Shown here in pieces: positions 11,934 through 58,943 of a stretch of DNA of 64,000 bases. This DNA is from an uncultured Acidobacteriota bacterium (GTDB lineage Bacteria > Acidobacteriota > Thermoanaerobaculia > UBA5066 > DATFVB01). The stretch is taken from the NCBI GenBank assembly GCA_963794295.1, contig CAWCDE010000006.1:18738-82737 (forward strand), written 5' to 3'. The notes under the pieces were generated by a model. That model made no database searches. It saw nothing but the letters and a program-made list of their open reading frames with translations, and was not told the DNA's origin. How positions within the stretch are numbered: the first letter of the stretch is position 1; every line of letters begins with the position of its first letter. Position numbers and translations under genes: made by a program.

Positions 11934-12069
11934 GAGGCGATTATCTGCGGAAGATGCGACCGGGACGGCCGCTGCGGAAGATCGCCTCGCGATTTTCCGC
12001 AGCGCTGCTGCCGGGAAAGGTGAGGACGACGAGGCGCGGTGAGACGTGCTGGAAGACGGACGAACCCGG

Positions 12070-12164
12070 TGGATCGGCGGCACGGGCGTACCGAAAGCGT
12101 ACGTCGAAGCCGGCGATACGACGGGTTCGGCCGTGTAACGGCGCGTATCGCCGCGCCGGCTTCT

Positions 12165-16891: not shown

Positions 16892-16978
16892 TGGTGCCGG
16901 AGGTCGGAATCGAACCGACATGGGGTTGCCCCCGGGGGATTTTGAGTCCCCTGCGTCTACCAGTTTCACCACTCCGGC
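16892..16978 (-). tRNA. tRNA-Leu (anticodon CAA) with long variable arm and encoded CCA
   Basis: Reverse complement folds as GCCGGAG/CTCCGGC acceptor stem, anticodon stem-loop GGGGA-CTCAAAA-TCCCC (anticodon CAA), a long extra arm, a GGTTCGATTCC T-arm and 3' CCA. Confidence 0.85.
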
Positions 16979-18970: not shown

Positions 18971-19136
18971 GGAAATTCCAAATCTCCCAAGCCTCAAATT
19001 CCAACAAACTCGAATCGCTAAATCGCAATGCCCGAAAGCGGGCCTTCGGATTACCGAGCCGACGCGTACTCGTGTATTGTTTGAGGATTGCGATTTGGAA
19101 GTTATTGATATTTGGAGCTTGAGGTTTGGAAATTCG
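18971..19136. repeat. low-GC palindromic MITE-like intergenic element, copy E1
   Basis: About 165 bp at roughly 45% GC in a 70% GC genome. Terminal inverted repeats: GGAAATTCCAAATCTCCCAAGCCTCAAATTCCAACAAACTCGAATCGC versus the reverse complement of GCGATTTGGAAGTTATTGATATTTGGAGCTTGAGGTTTGGAAATTCGG. Internal GCCCGAAAGCGGGC hairpin. Related copies at 38388-38548, 40166-40450 and 44411-44603. Confidence 0.7.
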
Positions 19137-19216
19137 GCCGGTGCGCCTCACCCGCGCCTGAAGTCTTCCCGGACTATCCGACGGGTGCCGAGCCGTCCCT
19201 CTGCTATCGTTTCTTC

Positions 19217-20558
19217 GTGAGCGACACGCTGTTCGGCGACGAGCCGGCGCCGAAGCCGGCGGCGAATCTTTCCGCGACGGTGCCGCTCGCCGAGCGGATG
19301 CGCCCCGCGGCGCTCGCGGAGATGGGGGCAGGAGCACCTGCTCGGCGGGGAGCTCCTGCCGCGCGCGATCGCGGCGGACCGCGTGCCTTCGATGATCCTC
19401 TGGGGGCCGCCCGGCTCGGGCAAGACCACGCTCGCGCGGGTCATCGCCGAGACGACCCACGCGCGCTTCGTCCCCTTCAACGCGGTGCTCGGCGGCGTGC
19501 CGGAGCTGCGCGAGATCCTCGGCGAGGCCAAGGAGGCGCGCGGCTACGAGGGCAAGCGGACCATCCTGTTCGTCGACGAGATCCACCGCTTCAACAAGGC
19601 GCAGCAGGACGCGTTCCTGCCGCACGTCGAGGACGGCACCATCACGCTGATCGGCGCGACGACCGAGAACCCGTCGTTCGCCGTGAACGCGCCGCTCCTC
19701 TCGCGCTGCAAGGTCTTCCGCCTGCGCCAGCACGAGGCCAAGGACCTCGCCGGAGTCCTGCGCCGCGCGATCGCCTCGCCCGAAGGCTTGAGCGGCGCGT
19801 TCGACGCCGACGACGACGCGCTCGAGGCGATCGCCGCGCTCGCGCAGGGCGACGCGCGCCGCGCGCTTGACCAGCCTCGAGATCGCCGGCGACGAGGTGC
19901 TGCGCGAGGGCGAGCGTCGCGTCACCGCCGCCGACGTCGGCGCGACCGGCGAGAACAAGACCCTGCTCTACGACAAGGCCGGCGAGGAGCACTACAACGT
20001 CATCAGCGCCTTCATCAAATCGATGCGCGGCTCCGACCCCGACGCCTCGATCTACTGGCTGATGCGGATGATCGAGGCGGGCGACGACCCGCTCTTCCTC
20101 CTGCGCCGGATGATGATCTTCGCGAGCGAGGACATCGGCAACGCCGACCCGCGCGCGCTCGAGGTCGCCGTCGCCGCCGACGCGGCGTTTCGCCGGATGG
20201 GCATGCCCGAGGGCATGTACCCGCTCGCGCAGGCGTGTCTGTACCTGGCGACCGCGCCGAAGTCGAACGCGTGCAACCAGGCTTGGCACGCGCGCAGGCG
20301 GCGGTGCAGGAGCACGGCGCGCTGCCGGTGCCGATGAAGCTCCGCAACGCGGTGACGAAGCTGATGAAGGGCGAGGGCTACGGCGAGGGGTACCGCTACG
20401 CGCACGACGAGGAGGGCGTGGGGGAGGACGTACCTCCCAGGAGTTGGTGGGGGAGCGGTACTATGAGCCGACGGAGCGCGGGAGAGGAAGGGGAGCTTTC
20501 CCGGCGGCTGGCGGCGATCCTCGAGGCGCGGTGCCGGGCGGCGCATCGGAACACGTAG
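19217..20558 (+). CDS. rarA: replication-associated recombination protein A (RarA/MgsA AAA+ ATPase), broken by at least 5 frameshifts
   Basis: Pieces sit in three frames: [10 protein letters not shown]...ERMRPAAL (19217 on), [15 protein letters not shown]...[41 protein letters not shown] (19383 on), and SLEIAG...[30 protein letters not shown]...APKSNA (19867..20337), plus a C-terminal [18 protein letters not shown]. The first frameshift is at a G5 run near 19330. Confidence 0.85.
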
Positions 20559-21499: not shown

Positions 21500-21620
21500 C
21501 GCGAAGGCGCGGTGAGGCGCGAGCCTGGCGGGATGCGGGCGTCCGAGCCCGCGGCGTACCGGGGCGTACGTTAAGGCCGCGGGTCGGAGCGCACGCCCCC
21601 CCCGGCTCGACGCATCGCCG
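21500..21620. repeat. GC-rich hairpin repeat, copy R2, core GGCGTACCGGGGCGTACGTTAAGG
   Basis: Core at 21553-21576, immediately 3' of guaB. The core is embedded in the CCCGCGG...CCGCGGG stem. The flanks CCCGCATCCC and GGCTCGC are shared with R3 and R5. Confidence 0.65.
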
Positions 21621-26029: not shown

Positions 26030-26345
26030 CGTCCATGCATCGAGCGATGCGGGCGCGTGCCGCCCGCCCGCGGCCTTAACGTACGCCCCGGTACGCCGCG
26101 GCCGCGGGACGGGCGGCCCGCATCCCACCTGGCTCGCGCCTGAACGCGCCTTGACGGTGTCTCGAGTGCCGCGATTTGGCGGGATGCAATCCCGAGGTTG
26201 GGAAATTGACGTTGAAGCGCGGTCAGACGTGCGGCAAGACGGGTTCGGCGGGACCGGCCGGCGGGCGCGGCGTACCGAAAGCGTACGTTAAGCCCGCCGG
26301 CGGCCCCGACGGGCCCGTATAACCGCGCGTATCACCGCGCTTCTC
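26030..26345. repeat. inverted pair of GC-rich hairpin repeats, copies R3 (26030-26145) and R4 (26250-26345)
   Basis: R3 core CTTAACGTACGCCCCGGTACGCC (26075-26098) sits inside the long stem CCGCCCGCCCGCGGCC / GGCCGCGGGACGGGCGG. R4 core GGCGTACCGAAAGCGTACGTTAAG (26269-26292) is in the opposite orientation. They lie between the M23 peptidase 3' end and the secA 5' end. Confidence 0.7.
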
Positions 26346-34055: not shown

Positions 34056-37562
<3,507 letters not shown>

Positions 37563-37574
37563 GCGGATCGGCGC

Positions 37575-38423
37575 GTGACCGGGAAGCGCTCCGTGCGGCT
37601 CCGGCTCGGGCTCGCCGACGCCGAGCGCGCCTCCGCGGCGCTCTACCGCGCGGGCACCCTCGGCGGCTGGGAGAGCGGAACGGAGTTCCTCGCCGCCTTT
37701 CCCGACGCGTCCTCGGCGCGGACCGCGCTCGAGCTTCCTCGCCGGCGAGTCGATCGCTGCCCGCCTCGAGGAATACCGGGTCCCCGCGGATCCTTTCGCC
37801 GTCCATCGCGCGTCGCTCGCGCCGTTCGCCGCCGGTGGCTTCCGGATCGACCCGCGAGGCGAGCCCGACGGAGGCTCGGAGGGGCCGGAGACACTCTGGA
37901 TCCCGGCGCACGCCGCCTTCGGGACGGGCCTCCACGCCTCGACCCGCGGAATCCTCCGCTGGATCGGCCGGGCGGACCTCCGCGGCGCCGCGTCCTCGAC
38001 GCCGGATGCGGAAGCGGGATCCTCGCGATCGCCGCGTCCCGCCGCGGGGCGGAGGCGTTCGCCTTCGATCTCGACGCCGATGCCGTGTTCGAAGCGCGCC
38101 GGAACGTCGCCCGGAACGCCGCCTCCCGCGTTCTCCTCTTCGCGGGCGGGATCGCGGCGGCCGGCGGCATCTTCGAAGCGATCTTCGCGAACATGATCTG
38201 GGAAGAGTCGGGTTCCGCTCGTCCCCGCGCTGGCGCGGCTCCTCGCGCCGGACGGCCGGGTCGTTTTCGCCGGCATCCTCGACGAGCGCGAGGCCGAAGC
38301 ACTTCGGGGGATCGCGTCGGCGGGGCTCACCGCCGTTCGCGTCGATGGGGAAGACGAATGGCGGACGATCGTGGCGGTGAAGGGAGAACGAAATTCCAAG
38401 ACTCAAGCACCAATCATCAATAA
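37575..38423 (+). CDS. prmA: ribosomal protein L11 methyltransferase PrmA, frameshifted; exact 3' end uncertain
   Basis: SAM-binding motif [20 protein letters not shown]...AFDLDADAV in ORF 37575..38423. The C-terminal ...[21 protein letters not shown]...VKGER segment lies in the third frame. Canonical dnaJ-prmA adjacency. Confidence 0.7.
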
Positions 38424-38548
38424 ATTCCAAATCCGAATTCTGAAACAATACACGATGACGGTCGGTTCGTCCCCAGGGATTCGTTTCGGCATTGGAATTT
38501 GGTCATTCGAATTTATTGGAATTTGAGGCTTGAGATCTCGAATTTGCG
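38388..38548. repeat. low-GC palindromic MITE-like element, copy E2
   Basis: The reverse complement of its right arm (CTCAAGCCTCAAATTCCAATAAATTCGAAT) matches E1's left arm (CCCAAGCCTCAAATTCCAACAAACTCGAAT) at 26 of 30 positions. It lies between the convergent prmA and thiD 3' ends. Confidence 0.65.
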
Positions 38549-38579: not shown

Positions 38580-39377
38580 CATGGCGCACTCGCTAGAAAT
38601 ACCGGGGGTTCCCTTTCCCTTCCCCGGATACAGCCCTCTCCCGAGCGCCCTCCGCAGGTATTCGATCCCGTCCCGGACGGCGTCCGGCATCGGCGCGCCG
38701 CGCGCGAGATTGGCGGCGATCGCGGAGGAGAGCGTGCACCCCGTGCCGTGCGTCGCCTCGGTGTCGATCCGGAAATACGCGAGAACTCGATGAATTTCCG
38801 GCCGTCGAAGAAGAGATCGCGGATCTCGCGGCCCTCGCCGTGTCCACCCTTGATGAGCACCGCCCGGGCGCCGAGGTCCGCCAGGACGCCGGCGGCGAGC
38901 CGGAGGTCTCCCTCGTCGCGGATCGCGAAGCCCGCGATCGCCTCCGCTTCCGGGAGGTTCGGCGTCACGAGCGCGGCGATCGGAAAGAGCTCGCGCTTCA
39001 TCGCGGCGAGCGCGGCGGGAGAGGAGCCGGGCGCCCGAGGTCGCATGGACGATCGGATCGAGAACGACGTTTTTCGCCTTGCCCTTCCGCAGGGCCCGCG
39101 CCGCCGCGGAGACGTTCGGGGCGTTGCCGAGCATCCCGATCTTCACGGCCCCCGGGACGGCGTCCGAGAGGATCGCGGCGATCTGTTCGGCGAGCAGCGG
39201 GCTGGCGACCGCCCGGGTCCGGGTGATTCCGCGGGTGTTCTGGACCGTGATCGCGGCCACCGCGACGGTGCCGAACACTCCGTGCGCCGCGAAGGTCATG
39301 AGGTCGGCGACGACGCCCGCGCCGCCGCCCGGATCGACGCCCGCGATCGTGAGCGCCACCGGGAGAGGGGTCGCCAT
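38580..39377 (-). CDS. thiD: hydroxymethylpyrimidine/phosphomethylpyrimidine kinase ThiD, frameshifted; 3' end approximate
   Basis: N-terminus [48 protein letters not shown] in ORF 38403..39377. Middle ([12 protein letters not shown]...AVLIKGGH) in ORF 38513..39046. C-terminal [22 protein letters not shown] back in the first frame. Confidence 0.75.
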
Positions 39378-39475: not shown

Positions 39476-40165
39476 ATGGCGAAGAAGCTGCGGCGAGAGG
39501 ACTTGAAGCGGGACGAAGTCATGGAGACCGTCGGAAAGGGCCTCCAGTTCGTTTCGGTCCACCGGCGGGCAGCGTCGAGACGGTGGGGATCGCCATCGGG
39601 CTCGCCGCCCTGATCGGCGCCTTCGTCGCGTTCCGCGCGCGCCGGGAGTCGCAGGCCGCCGACCACCTTTCCCGCGCGCTCGCCGCTCTTTCGGCTCCCC
39701 TCGCGGGCGACCCGTCGGCGGGAACCGCCGCGAACGTACCCGGCCGCCGCGGAACGGAGCGCCGACACGAATCGCGAGCTCGCCGCCGCGGCCGAGTTCG
39801 GCACGACGAAGTCCGGCCGCGAGGCGGCGGTGATTCTCGCCGCCCAGGGGGATCGAAGGACACGGGCGCGTTCAACCGGTTCGCGCGGAGCGGCAAGACG
39901 GCGATCACCGCGGCCGCGGAGCTCGACGCGTACCGGACGATGAGCGATTCCGGGAAGACGACGGAGGCGATCGCCGCGGTCAGCGGCGATCGAGACCTCC
40001 TCGACCGCCGTCCCGAAGGATGCCCTGCTCGCCGAGCTCGGCGCGCTGTACGAGCGGTCGGGCTCGCCGCGCCGACGCGAAAGCGACCTACCAGCGCCTC
40101 GTGAGCGAGTATCCCGATTCGCCGTACGCCTCCGATGCGCAGAGCCGGATCGGGCAACTGCAGTA
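39476..40165 (+). CDS. YfgM-like membrane-anchored TPR protein, frameshifted
   Basis: [26 protein letters not shown], then a TM helix ([18 protein letters not shown]) in another frame and a C-terminal TPR-like ...[25 protein letters not shown] stop (TAA near 40163). Confidence 0.5.
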
Positions 40166-40450
40166 AAGAAGAAATCCGAAATCCGAATTTCGGTATCGCG
40201 GACAAGACGGCCGCTGAACGGAACGGCGCTCTTGCCTCGCCGGCGGGACCGAAGGACGCCGATAGCAATCGCCGAGCCCGCGAAGCGGGTGAAGGCCAAT
40301 CCGAAACAAATCCGAAATCCGAAAGGCTCGAATTCCGGAGAACGGGATCAAGGCGCCCCGAACGGCAGTTTTCCAGGGTGCCCGTTCGGGATTTCGGTTT
40401 GAGGTTTTCGGAGTTGTTTCGGATTACGGGTTTTGAAATTCGGATTCCCG
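40166..40450. repeat. low-GC palindromic element, copy E3 (largest), rich in GAAATCCGAAATCCGAA and complementary TTCGGATTTCGG motifs
   Basis: About 285 bp between yfgM-like and deoB. The left arm carries tandem AAATCCGAA units and the right arm the inverse TTTCGGATT(A/T)CGG units. Related to E1, E2 and E4. Confidence 0.6.
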
Positions 40451-40473
40451 GAGGCGCGCCGTCATGACTTCCA

Positions 40474-41646
40474 GTGACGTCGTTGTCTGACCACGCGCGC
40501 CGCCGGGCCATCGTTCTCGTCTGCGACGGTCTCGGCGTCGGCGCGGCGCCCGACGCGGCGGAGTACGGCGACGGAGGGAGCGACACGCTCGGGCACGTGC
40601 TCGACGCGTCCCCCGTGGATCTTCCGAACCTCGCGGCGCTGGGCCTCCTCCGCGCGGGACGCCGCGGCGGGCCGGCGCCGGACGCCGCGTGGGGCCGGAT
40701 GCGCGAGATCTCGGCGGGAAAGGACTCCACGACGGGCCACTGGGAGATGATGGGGCTCGTCACCCGGGAACCCTTCCCGCGTATTCCCGCGGATTCCCGC
40801 GGGAGGTCCTCGATCCGATCGAGCGCGAGATCGGCGTCCGCTTTCTCGGCAACGTCCCCGCTTCCGGAACGGAGATCATCCGGGAGCTCGGCCCCGAGCA
40901 CCTCGCGACGAAGCGGCCGATCCTCTACACGTCCGGCGATTCGGTGTTCCAGGTCGCCGCGCACGAGGATCTGATTCCGCCCGCCCGGCTCTGGGAGATG
41001 TGTGCGGTGGCACGGCGCCATCTCGTCCCACCGAACGGCGTCGGCCGCGTGATCGCCCGGCCCTTCGCCGGCGAGCCGGGCGCGTTCGTGCGCACCGCGC
41101 GGCGCCGCGACTTCTCGCTCCCGCCGCACGGCCCGACGTTCCTCGACTACGCGTCGGCCGCGGGGCTCCGCACGTTCGGCATCGGAAAGATCGTCGACAT
41201 CTTCGCGGGGCGCGGGCTGTCGGAGTTCGCCTACTCGGCGTCGGACGCGGACGGACTCGCGAAGACCGCCGACCGGGTCCGCGCGGCGCGGACGACTTCG
41301 TCCTGACGAATCTCGTCGACTTCGACAGCAAGTACGGACACCGAAGCGACCCGGCGGGGTTCGCCGGGAATCTCCGCCGCCTCGACGCCGCGATTCCCGC
41401 GCTCCGGGACGCGCTCGGCGCCGGCGATCTCCTCTTCCTGACCGGCGATCACGGCTGCGACCCGACGGACGCGTCGACCGACCATACGCGGGAGGAAGTG
41501 CCGCTGCTCGCCGCGGGGCCGGCCGTTTGTCCCGGAGCGGAGCTGGGGACGCGCCGCTTTCGAGACCTCGCGGCGACGCTGGAGGATTGGTTCGCCCTTC
41601 CTTCCCGCTCGGGAGGAACGAGCGCGCTCGGCGCGCTCCTCCGATG
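40474..41646 (+). CDS. deoB: phosphopentomutase DeoB, with about 3 frameshifts
   Basis: Pieces in ORFs 40474..40974 (AIVLVCDGLGVG...GKDSTTGHWEMMGL), 40689..41306 (PILYTSGDSVFQVAAHE...) and 41000..41647 (FVLTNLVDFDSKYGHR...LFLTGDHGCDPT). Confidence 0.85.
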
Positions 41647-42780
41647 ACGACGCTCGCCGCGATCGCCGCGGCGGTATCGGTGCTCTCGCTCGTTTTCCTG
41701 GCGATCAACGCGGTCGTCTTCCGCCCTCTCGGCGGGGTCTCCGGTCGAGCGGCCTGGCCGCGCGTCTCCGTCGTGATTCCCGCGAGGAACGAGGAGCGGG
41801 ACCTCGCGGCCGCGCTCCGCTCGCACGCCGCGAGCGACTATCCCGACTTCGAGGTGATCGTCGTCGACGACCGCTCGACCGACGGAACGCCGGCGATCGC
41901 AGCGCGCTTCGCCGCCGCGGACGGGCGATTTCGCGTGATCGCCGGCGAGGAGCCGCCTCCCGGCTGGCTCGGCAAGCCCCATGCCCTCCAGGCGGGCGCG
42001 GCCGCCGCGACGGGAGAGTGGCTCCTGTTCGCCGACGCCGACGTCGTCTACGACCCCGACGTCCTCCGCCGGGCGGTCGGGGAGGCGCTCCGGCGCCGCG
42101 CCGATCTGCTCGCCCTGCTGTCGCGTTTCGAAAGCCGCGGCTTCTGGGAAGGCGTCGTCATGCCGGGCGTCTACGGATTCCTCTATCTCGGACCGGGATT
42201 CCTCACGCAGATCGACGCCGTGACGGCGTTCGCCGGCGGGACCGGCAGCGGGAACCTTGTTCGGCGCGCGAGCTACGACGCGGCCGGGGGCCATGCCGCA
42301 ATCCGCGACGCGGTGATCGACGATATCGGCCTCGCGCTCTCGATGAAGCGCGCCGGTTTCCGCACCCGGGCCGCGGCCGCCTACGACGGCGTTCGCGTCC
42401 GGATGTACCGCGGGCTCGGCGAAATGGTCGATGGGTTCTCCAAGAACGTCGCCTTCCTCGGTTCTCCGGCGCCGTCGCTCCTTCTGCCGCTCGCGCTCTG
42501 CCTGCTCGCGTGGGCTCCGTGGGTCGTGCTGGCGGCGCCGGCGGCGGCGTCGACGAAGCTCCTCGCCGCGGGAGCGGCGGCGGCGACCATCGCCGGCCGC
42601 GCGGCCGTCGCACGCATCACCGGCGATCCCCTCTGGAGCGCGCTCTTCCATCCGCTGATGCTCACGGTCCTCTTCGTGATCACCCTGCGGTCGTGGTGGC
42701 GGAGGGTGGTCCGGCGCGAGATCGTCTGGCGCGGCCGCCGGACGGCGATCCCGCGCGCGCGGAGGCCCCCGGCGGGATAA
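41643..42780 (+). CDS. family-2 glycosyltransferase, polytopic membrane protein
   Basis: ATG overlaps the deoB stop (ATGA). GT-A motifs: VSVVIPARNEE, ...VVDDRSTDGT, ...FADADV. Multiple C-terminal TM helices. Confidence 0.8.
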
Positions 42781-44410: not shown

Positions 44411-44603
44411 GCAAATCCGAAGCAAATTCCAATCTCGAATGACGAAATGTTCGAAACGGAGAGGTGCGTTTTGATCGGTGACGATGCCGCCGTCTGAGCG
44501 CCGGGATTTACTCGGCCGTCGAAACGAGGCCCGTTTGGATCATTCGAGTTCTGGATTTTGAATTTGTTTCGAATTTCGTGTTTCGAATCTCGGATTCATT
44601 TCC
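44411..44603. repeat. low-GC palindromic element, copy E4
   Basis: CAAATCCGAAGCAAATTCCAATCTCGAATGACGAAATGTTCGAAAC ... GTTTCGAATTTCGTGTTTCGAATCTCGGATTCATTTCC. Inverted symmetry. Lies between the convergent SBP and galK 3' ends. Confidence 0.6.
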
Positions 44604-55659: not shown

Positions 55660-55790
55660 CCTCGGCGAAGGCGGATGCATCGAGCCGGCCGGGCGCGTGC
55701 CGCCGGCCGCCGCCACGACGTACGCTTCGGTACGCCTTAGGCGTCGGCCGGCGACCCGCATCCCGGCGGGCTCGCGCCTCGCCGCGCCTT
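55660..55790. repeat. GC-rich hairpin repeat, copy R5, core ACGTACGCTTCGGTACGCCTTAG
   Basis: Core at 55715-55740 inside the stem GCCGGCCGCCGCC / GGCGTCGGCCGGC. Flanks GCATCGAGC ... CCCGCATCCC ... GGCTCGCGCCT are shared with R2 and R3. Immediately 3' of the TonB-like gene. Confidence 0.65.
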
Positions 55791-58683: not shown

Positions 58684-58758
58684 TGGGGAGTCGCCTAACG
58701 GTAGGGCAGCGGCCTTTGGAGCCGCCTATTGAAGGTTCGAATCCTTCCTCCCCAACCA
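58684..58758 (+). tRNA. tRNA-Gln (anticodon UUG)
   Basis: TGGGGAGTCGCCTAACGGTAGGGCAGCGGCCTTTGGAGCCGCCTATTGAAGGTTCGAATCCTTCCTCCCCAACCA. Acceptor TGGGGAG/CTCCCCA, anticodon stem GCGGC/GCCGC with loop CTTTGGA, T-arm GAAGG-TTCGAAT-CCTTC. Very close to E. coli tRNA-Gln. Confidence 0.85.
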
Positions 58759-58943
58759 TGTCGCCTTCGCGACGCACGGGGAGCTCGGAGCTCGAGAGCG
58801 GCCGGCGACGGATGCCCGGGTTCGCTTCGCTCACGGCGCCCTGCCTCCAGGGGCTTTTTCTCGCCCGTCCCGGCCGCCGCGGGATCCGGCCGTCCGGGAG
58901 GAAGCTCTTGGAAAGGGAGTGCGGCGCTCGCCGCCGGGCGTCG

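Follow-up and report, generated by a model that had tools for sequence, protein, structure and literature searches.

Four GC-poor intergenic segments, here called E1 to E4, in 64,000 nucleotides of the genome of an uncultured Acidobacteriota bacterium (GenBank assembly GCA_963794295.1, contig CAWCDE010000006.1, positions 18,738 to 82,737; this whole stretch is referred to as the window) form a real, related, non-coding palindromic family, as judged from their hairpin folds, from motifs confined to them and from their matches to an independent profile hidden Markov model (HMM). The arms of these elements are arrays of 7-bp units, mirrored around a variable core, and the same architecture recurs in at least five phyla. 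We propose, with about an even chance of being right, that this heptad family is a non-autonomous, horizontally spread foldback repeat whose arms would act as recognition arrays at the DNA level.

The four copies in the window are one family

The low GC content that the original prediction had reported is confirmed at all four sites. The lowest values over 80 nt are 0.42, 0.38, 0.46 and 0.39 for E1, E2, E3 and E4, respectively (38-46% versus a background of 70%, or 70.2% across the window), and the elements are the strongest low-GC islands of the window outside promoter regions and gene starts. Their arms have a GC content of 0.37-0.47 compared with 0.70 for the host. Two 9-mers, AAATTCCAA (five occurrences and two more as reverse complement) and AAATCCGAA (six occurrences), are found exclusively inside E1-E4 and nowhere else in the 64 kb. 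The list of shared motifs given earlier stands in part: TTCGGATT, GGCTTGAG and GCTTGAG are present on the plus strand, whereas exact copies of TTCGGATTT and CTCAAGCC are not.

The relationship was assessed with nhmmer and a profile HMM for which only metagenome copies were aligned (32 copies, alignment A3), none of them from the window. This profile recovers E1-E4 but no other part of the window, and has no hit in 1.2 Mb of unrelated control loci. Neither the motifs nor an HMM match are present in the remaining GC-poor intergenic regions of the window (at 17.0, 26.0 and 32.0 kb). As an independent model finds all four copies and only these, their relationship exceeds shared AT-richness. A direct MAFFT alignment of the four copies yields a mean column identity of only 57% and was dropped as a homology test for being too noisy; orthologous loci and the independent HMM were used instead. 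The similarity between the left arm of E1 and the reverse complement of the right arm of E2, previously put at 26 of 30 positions, was underestimated and amounts to 37 of 41 aligned bases with one 2-nt gap. This identity of ~88% between E1 and E2 arms in inverted orientation indicates a more recent copying event. E3 and E4 have blocks such as TGAATTTGTTTCGA in common with each other and also with orthologues at the other site. The units are of the CGAA/TTCG type in E3 and E4, but in E1 and E2 they belong to a CCAA/TTGG variant that is altered on both arms; as this core change affects every unit of both arms, it implies either concerted unit turnover or a changed recognition specificity. E1 and E2 are a younger CCAA/TTGG subfamily pair, and the window copies as a whole are old, partly degraded family members in an acidobacterial genome of ~70% GC.

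The notion that no family exists, and that AT-rich intergenic spacers or ordinary terminators merely look alike through low complexity, could draw on the poor four-copy alignment and on the modest HMM match of E1 (E=2e-4). It is at odds, however, with the confinement of the motifs, with low-GC spacers that lack both motifs and matches, with E-values down to 7.5e-19 at zero control matches, with the E1/E2 arm identity and with orthologous copies that have identical 26-nt blocks. The similarity of the copies is therefore more than AT-rich low complexity; chance is excluded, and we regard this explanation as refuted, its remaining probability being close to nil.

Terminal inverted arms, as originally described, are seen in all four copies by inverted-repeat and folding analyses. 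All of them fold as long imperfect hairpins with 47-60 Watson-Crick pairs in the arms, and in each the fold of the plus strand is the more stable one by 3-10 kcal/mol; no strand is assigned to any of the elements or their parts. E1 (18973-19136) is a CCAA/TTGG-unit variant with its left arm at ~18971-19028 and its right arm at ~19085-19136. Its match to the family HMM is better on the minus strand (E=2.1e-4) than on the plus strand (0.018), and it folds with 60 Watson-Crick pairs at -66.5 kcal/mol (z -3.46; this and the following z values are relative to dinucleotide shuffles). The perfect, GC-rich core hairpin GCCCG-AAAG-CGGGC noted earlier can be read directly from the sequence at 19030-19043. 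E2 (38389-38546), of the same unit variant, lies between the prmA stop (38380) and the 3' end of thiD, with inverted arms at 38391-38430 and 38506-38545 (HMM E=3.2e-7; fold -53.5 kcal/mol, z -2.9). The thiD reading frame extends into E2, probably owing to a 1-nt frameshift.

E3 is interrupted. Its core (40298-40446; HMM E=4.1e-13) is a CGAA/TTCG-unit element between the 3' end of a ybgF-like gene and the deoB start, and its outermost left units (AAGAAATCCGAAATCCGAATTTCGG, 40166-40192; weak HMM match, E=0.4) are separated from the remaining arm by a GC-rich segment of ~105 nt (40193-40297) that folds as hairpins of its own. In the orthologous elements of two relatives (L082 and L087) this segment is absent and the outermost units are continuous with the inner arm; from the sequence comparison, we read the segment as a probable nested insertion. 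E3 folds at -126.3 kcal/mol (z -3.4). E4 (44413-44596), also built from CGAA/TTCG units, gives the best match (E=7.5e-19) and folds at -71.9 kcal/mol (z -1.75); its right end is the first base of the galK stop codon (complement of 44596-44598). The E4 sequence is identical in an independent Logan assembly (L001).

Architecture and evolution of the arms

The consensus of the family reads AAATYCGAA-(NNNCGAA)x3-ACAA-(NNNCAAA)x3-4 ... variable loop ... (TTTGNNN)n-TTGT-(TTCGNNN)x3-TTCGRATTT. Each arm is thus an array of 7-bp units, with outer NNN-CGAA units (mirrored as TTCG-NNN) and inner NNN-CAAA units (mirrored as TTTG-NNN) inverted around a variable core. When anchored on the invariant CGAAAC/GTTTCG pair, the outer arms are strictly 7-nt periodic; conservation is 70-97% in the CGAA core and its flanking A's, leaving three variable positions per unit.

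If the hairpin were maintained as an RNA helix, the variable triplets of opposing units should covary. Instead, they form Watson-Crick pairs no more often than the product of the column frequencies predicts, and in places less often (0.16 observed versus 0.30 expected at k=8), and their mutual information is 0.05-0.14 bit. The repertoire of units (ATY, GCA, TAT) and the preference for a 'special' second unit are common to both arms, and the combinations across arms are random. Over the aligned arm positions, 77% are Watson-Crick pairs and 13% are transversion mismatches, and RNAalifold on the family returns only a local TTCGAA self-pair and no long consensus helix. G-U-compatible mismatches are distributed 107:86 between sense and antisense strand (p=0.15, not significant); a first version of this test was significant in the orientation of the search pattern, but the significance disappeared once the counts were re-expressed by gene direction. 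Given the lack of excess pairing between arms and the random unit combinations, the two arms follow one array grammar but evolve independently of each other. Selection on an RNA helix does not keep them complementary, and the pattern is the one expected for the two ends of a DNA element or for paired protein-binding arrays.

Two apparent asymmetries were set aside. A shared orientation with an A/C-rich left arm and a G/T-rich right arm is trivially true for both strands of a palindrome. The left/right asymmetry and the 17-bit difference in HMM score between strands were not used as evidence, as they largely result from selecting the copies by a pattern in one arm.

Several arms contain short GC-rich palindromes, for example CCTGCCCGCC…GGCGGGCAGG, often directly after a TTCG or CGAA core (loci L102, L159, L167, L170, L177, L183, L188, L209 and L211), which suggests that they are a tiny repeat family of their own or that insertion favours this point. 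The GCCCG-AAAG-CGGGC hairpin of E1 and the 105-nt block of E3 are local examples of such nested GC-rich segments. In four Desulfobacterales contigs (L093, L115, L119, L148), a different element of ~90 nt with inverted ends CCGTGTCTC…GAGACACGG abuts one end of the heptad element.

Distribution across phyla

The family extends far beyond four copies, in line with the multi-copy family originally suspected. The 19-base arm pattern GAATTTGTTTCGARYTTCG, which is common to non-orthologous copies, matches at least 120 metagenome stretches, compared with ~10 chance matches estimated from its information content, and most of these matches form the right arm of a hairpin of ~130-200 nt. In 2.9 million viral contigs the pattern has only five matches. 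Its host contigs come from sediments, groundwater, lakes, soils and hypersaline sites and range from 0.30 to 0.65 in GC content. The HMM identifies 148 elements in 121 loci, 23 of which hold at least two; lone arms make up about a quarter of the elements.

The host contigs that exact protein look-ups could assign fall into the candidate phyla radiation (CPR; Roizmanbacteria for L110, Moranbacteria for L198), the Desulfobacterales (L119, L143, L159, L177), the Planctomycetota (L106) and the Kiritimatiellia (L188). Together with the window and its relatives, which are probably Thermoanaerobaculia, the family thus occurs in at least five phyla: Patescibacteria, Desulfobacterota, Planctomycetota, Kiritimatiellia and Acidobacteriota. 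The arms keep a constant GC content of 31-38% across hosts of 30-71% GC. A non-coding sequence of ~150 nt that stays nearly unchanged in genomes of 30-70% GC is rare outside the universal RNAs, and its conservation across phyla points either to a promiscuous mobile element with a mobilising enzyme still to be found or to a shared host partner.

No standard feature type had been thought to explain the elements, and indeed no standard annotation or Rfam family fits. Rfam 15 detects only tRNAs in the window at gathering level and nothing meaningful at E-value level, and on canonical copies it yields only sub-threshold matches to plant miRNA hairpins. Integron attC sites, parS/NBS sites, CsrA sponges and rut sites were considered and rejected, as their defining cores are absent or mirrored arms on both strands are left unexplained. 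Literature searches for the sequence strings found no paper that prints the motifs of the family, and the ~150-nt mirrored-heptad repeat is apparently undescribed so far. In kind, it is an interspersed palindromic repeat with an unusually broad phylogenetic reach.

Several matches are located no more than a few dozen bases from the end of a contig, so that the repeats probably disrupt metagenome assembly. Their annotation is possible with the profile, and strains could be told apart by their heptad copy numbers.

Gain and loss at orthologous sites

Syntenic contigs of relatives were reached through homologues of galK (68-85% identity) and of the TPR protein (84-86% identity). The presence/absence polymorphism that had been suggested as a check is observed, with filled, reduced and empty states among these relatives. 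At the E1 site, the four relatives of 84-86% amino-acid identity have no HMM match and instead carry other GC-rich palindromic repeats, two of them also an element of ~330 nt with inverted ends. The E2 site is empty in L082, L084 and L087. The E3 site is occupied by a large element in L082/L083, L085 and L087, the copy of L085 having drifted to 65% GC; L090 retains only a 9-bp mini-hairpin (GAAATCCGA-GTT-TCGGATTTC), L084 a short remnant and L086 an unrelated GC-rich sequence. The large element found at the E4 site in L087 contains a block of 26 nt that is identical to the window; a mini-hairpin takes its place in L082 and L085, the gap in L084 measures 4 nt, and L090 and L086 are empty here. 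The right arm of the L087 element at this site contains a tandem (GTTTCGA)n array, of which L088, whose GalK protein is the same, has a shorter version; unit number is hereby shown to change by slippage. These filled, reduced and empty sites imply that the elements are gained, lost, resized and decayed within 15-30% protein divergence. Further relatives retrieved by galK among genome representatives all have at most 57% identity, and the motif occurs in none of them.

The ~330-nt insertion (…GGGAATAGCG … CGCTATTCCC…) lies in the TPR-rarA spacer at 10660-11000 of L217 and 1400-1730 of L222, and a related CCGGGATAGCG is found in the window, immediately to the left of E1. In relatives, the E1-orthologous position is also occupied by a second, GC-rich palindromic family of ~125 nt with the cores CGTACGCCCCGGTACGC and GCGTACCGAAAGCGTACG. 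It is represented in the window at 12033-12157, 26047-26343, 21554-21570 and 55719-55735, in L219 at 2740-2860 and in L217/L222; three occurrences of its core in the window compare with 0.15 expected. The TPR-rarA spacer looks like a hotspot for different repeats.

Gene context

According to Pfam searches on the flanking open reading frames (ORFs) and syntenic gene calls, E1 lies between co-directional TPR(+) and rarA(+) genes, E2 between convergent dnaJ-prmA(+) and thiD(-), E3 between co-directional ybgF-like(+) and deoB(+) genes and E4 between convergent SBP_bac_5(+) and galK(-) genes. The statement that all four sit at convergent or 3' gene ends therefore holds for E2 and E4 as far as convergence is concerned, but not for E1 and E3, although each of the elements comes after the 3' end of some gene.

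One metagenome copy (L162) is inserted at the loop of helix 25 in a 23S rRNA gene, where it forms an extended AT-rich stem-loop in place of the normal loop. Helix 25 is a classical site of intervening sequences (IVSs), which are regarded as sporadic, horizontally acquired parasitic stem-loops excised by RNase III (PMC4990558). In this one case the 'empty' state is known from a universal structure, and the L162 copy shows that the element is able to arrive at new positions and that an RNA can tolerate its hairpin. By analogy to known IVSs, excision of this copy by RNase III is plausible, and the heptad family is a candidate source of some 23S rRNA intervening sequences.

In L122, a long ORF of membrane/TPR type reads through a heptad element at ~2400-2530 (…NPNIEIRNPKQFSKFEFSKIWSFEFVSNF…); the ORF may be spurious, or the element may have inserted in frame in the manner of the Rickettsia palindromic elements.

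Apparent frameshifts split or fuse rarA (19112-20558), dnaJ and prmA (36473-38380), the thiD stop (38590-38600), the C terminus of the ybgF-like gene (40100-40170) and deoB (40464-41650). They could be assembly indels, possibly from long reads, or mark pseudogenes; single-base details in homopolymers call for caution. The window further encodes tRNA-Leu(CAA) at 16892-16978 on the minus strand and tRNA-Gln(TTG) at 58684-58758 on the plus strand, the latter followed by the only convincing canonical terminator of the window (58838-58862).

Mobile DNA, protein-binding array or RNA signal

On balance, the heptad element behaves more like a selfish DNA repeat than like a conserved RNA. According to the model for which we see an even chance, it would be a selfish, non-autonomous DNA element that spreads horizontally, each arm providing an array of sites for a protein, be it a transposase/recombinase or a host factor. 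The RNA hairpin would then be a by-product of the inverted arrays. It would allow insertions to be tolerated and, where it lies at the end of a gene, may happen to prevent read-through or 3' decay. Terminal inverted repeats and a multi-copy distribution with filled and empty sites are features that the family has in common with a miniature inverted-repeat transposable element (MITE), one of the two interpretations put forward in the original prediction. The reading as a classical MITE is nevertheless not supported: the copies have no target-site duplications, their ends are ragged, and no transposase or autonomous partner is seen in the window or in the flanks searched.

These last observations also weigh against the proposed model, as do several others. 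In the flanks of ~60-80 copies and in the window copies no direct repeat was found, and the elements stop at variable points within the heptad array. Neither an autonomous copy nor a recurrent neighbouring transposase is present in ~0.75 Mb of flanks or in the window, and no arm pair encloses a gene. A BLAST search of 7.3 Gb of plasmids and 2.3 Gb of phages gave no match, in which the low-complexity filter may have masked the query. Among 41 clean metagenome contexts, 35 have the element between co-directional genes, nearly filling the spacer and close to stop and start codons, with a weak orientation bias relative to the genes (19 versus 7, p ~0.03). Three lone arms are also found in a bona fide phage contig, where they lie in narrow spacers between the genes of its structural operon. 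The co-directional spacers and the phage arms hint at a role in gene expression rather than at pure parasitism, and a conserved host partner could alternatively account for sequences that are nearly the same in different phyla. The main weakness of the model is that the mobilising mechanism is one that we infer entirely.

Recurrent neighbours are only of generic kinds, namely sensor kinases, sigma-54 regulators, ABC transporters and TPR proteins. An IS630/mariner-type TA duplication was considered, many ends reading TAAAT...ATTTA, and rejected, as only 13 of 79 copies have a T...A flank.

The gene context speaks for a host cis-acting RNA in 3' untranslated regions or between cistrons, that is, for bidirectional terminators, RNase III sites or mRNA stabilisers kept by selection at the transcript level. 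To the co-directional spacers and the orientation bias can be added that E1-E4 all follow a gene 3' end, E4 even reaching the galK stop codon, that the plus strand folds better in all four window copies, and that the host must transcribe and tolerate the copy in its rRNA. Terminator-like sites in the window do not exceed shuffle expectation, so that another 3'-end signal may be needed. The arms themselves, however, argue against such a function, with pairing of the variable positions at or below chance and no covariation, 13% transversion mismatches and no significant G-U bias towards the sense strand. Lone arms are common, and in the phage, where they sit after or before structural genes including those for the major capsid, head-tail joining and 887-aa proteins, both arm types occur on the sense strand. 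In addition, close relatives lose the elements freely, and a function residing in structure only leaves the exact conservation of sequence across phyla unexplained. The structured small RNA or terminator envisaged at the outset finds no support either; a simple terminator scan flags only sub-hairpins, three in E3 (minus strand only) and a weak one of 5 pairs in E1 (19062-19075, plus strand). We thus consider an RNA signal of the host unlikely.

We likewise attach a low probability to the alternative that the arms are DNA-level binding arrays for a conserved host protein, one subunit per 7-bp unit, which serve nucleoid organisation or regulation and do not move. A parallel would be the heptad arrays to which ribbon-helix-helix proteins bind, for example the omega repressor encoded by plasmid pSM19035. 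The strict 7-bp period with its conserved 4-bp core, the unit repertoire and position rules that are alike in both arms without being complementary, and a sequence that stays constant whatever the host GC content would all follow from such binding; a function independent of orientation also fits the lone arms, and the paired inverted hepta- and octanucleotide arrays of Geobacter metallireducens are proposed sites for IHF/HU (PMC2700814). Yet no candidate protein has emerged, the fast turnover at orthologous sites speaks against a function that the host needs, and neither the copy in the 23S rRNA helix nor those in phage are predicted. Moreover, a single DNA-binding specificity would have to be common to CPR bacteria, Desulfobacterales, the PVC group and Acidobacteriota.

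A bolder version of the foldback-repeat model, which we put forward as a rather improbable conjecture, is that the family exemplifies a so far unrecognised class of prokaryotic element, whose inverted 7-bp-unit ends would be read by a widespread protein (a transposase, a recombinase or a domesticated protein) and which would spread across phyla, including the CPR and phages, and could land at hairpin tips such as helix 25 of the 23S rRNA. If true, this class would link dispersed intergenic repeats with the origin of rRNA intervening sequences.

Comparison with known systems

MITEs and the Correia/NEMIS, ERIC, BOX, RUP and RPE repeats are non-coding, ~100-250 nt long, multi-copy, intergenic and hairpin-forming; apart from MITEs, these families are restricted to a genus or family. 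The heptad family resembles them in being non-coding and intergenic at gene ends, in its long inverted arms and in its presence/absence polymorphism, and resembles BOX in its modular build with a variable number of internal units. It differs in that no target-site duplication, sharp termini or cognate insertion sequence was found, in arms that are arrays of 7-bp units rather than a single terminal inverted repeat, and in its occurrence in at least five phyla.

REP/REPIN sequences are extragenic palindromes at gene ends that form hairpin doublets, persist for long at orthologous sites and lack target-site duplications. The heptad family is similar in being palindromic at gene ends, in doublets that fold as hairpins, in its long persistence at orthologous sites and in the lack of target-site duplication. 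However, its consensus contains neither of the REP tags GTAG and CGTC (PMC3733652), it is composed of 7-nt units instead of 20-40-nt palindromes, and it crosses phyla, whereas REP families are lineage-specific. No RAYT-like gene or gene of a Y1-transposase-like family is seen in the window or in the flanks.

The 23S rRNA intervening sequences, located at helices 9, 25 and 45, are matched by the L162 member in position and form, whereas the window copies are intergenic and not in rRNA; in the literature searched, IVSs have not been reported as members of a dispersed intergenic heptad-array family. A looser parallel is provided by the TAACTGA heptamer, which forms intergenic direct repeats in Beggiatoaceae, Cyanobacteria and Bacteroidetes (PMC4679880), and by the cyanobacterial STRR sequences. 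Like the heptad family, these are tandem 7-nt intergenic units in distant phyla with no evident transfer mechanism, of variable copy number and often near start codons (PMC4679880), but they are simple direct arrays of one heptamer of another sequence, not mirrored around a core.

The closest described architecture is that of the 'global regulator binding sites' of G. metallireducens, classes 1-3, which consist of two sites on opposite strands, each with 3-5 tandem units of 7-9 nt, and a variable spacer between them (Aklujkar et al. 2009, PMC2700814). These sites occur in multiple copies between genes, with other insertion elements adjoining (PMC2700814), just as small repeats abut the heptad elements or are nested in them. 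Their units, GTTGCTYN, TCTCCGTS[Y] and MTYCTGA, were reported as unique to one genome (PMC2700814) and differ from the NNNCGAA of the heptad family, and their role is only proposed. The heptad family is thus a far broader example of the paired tandem heptanucleotide architecture that had been noted once, in Geobacter.

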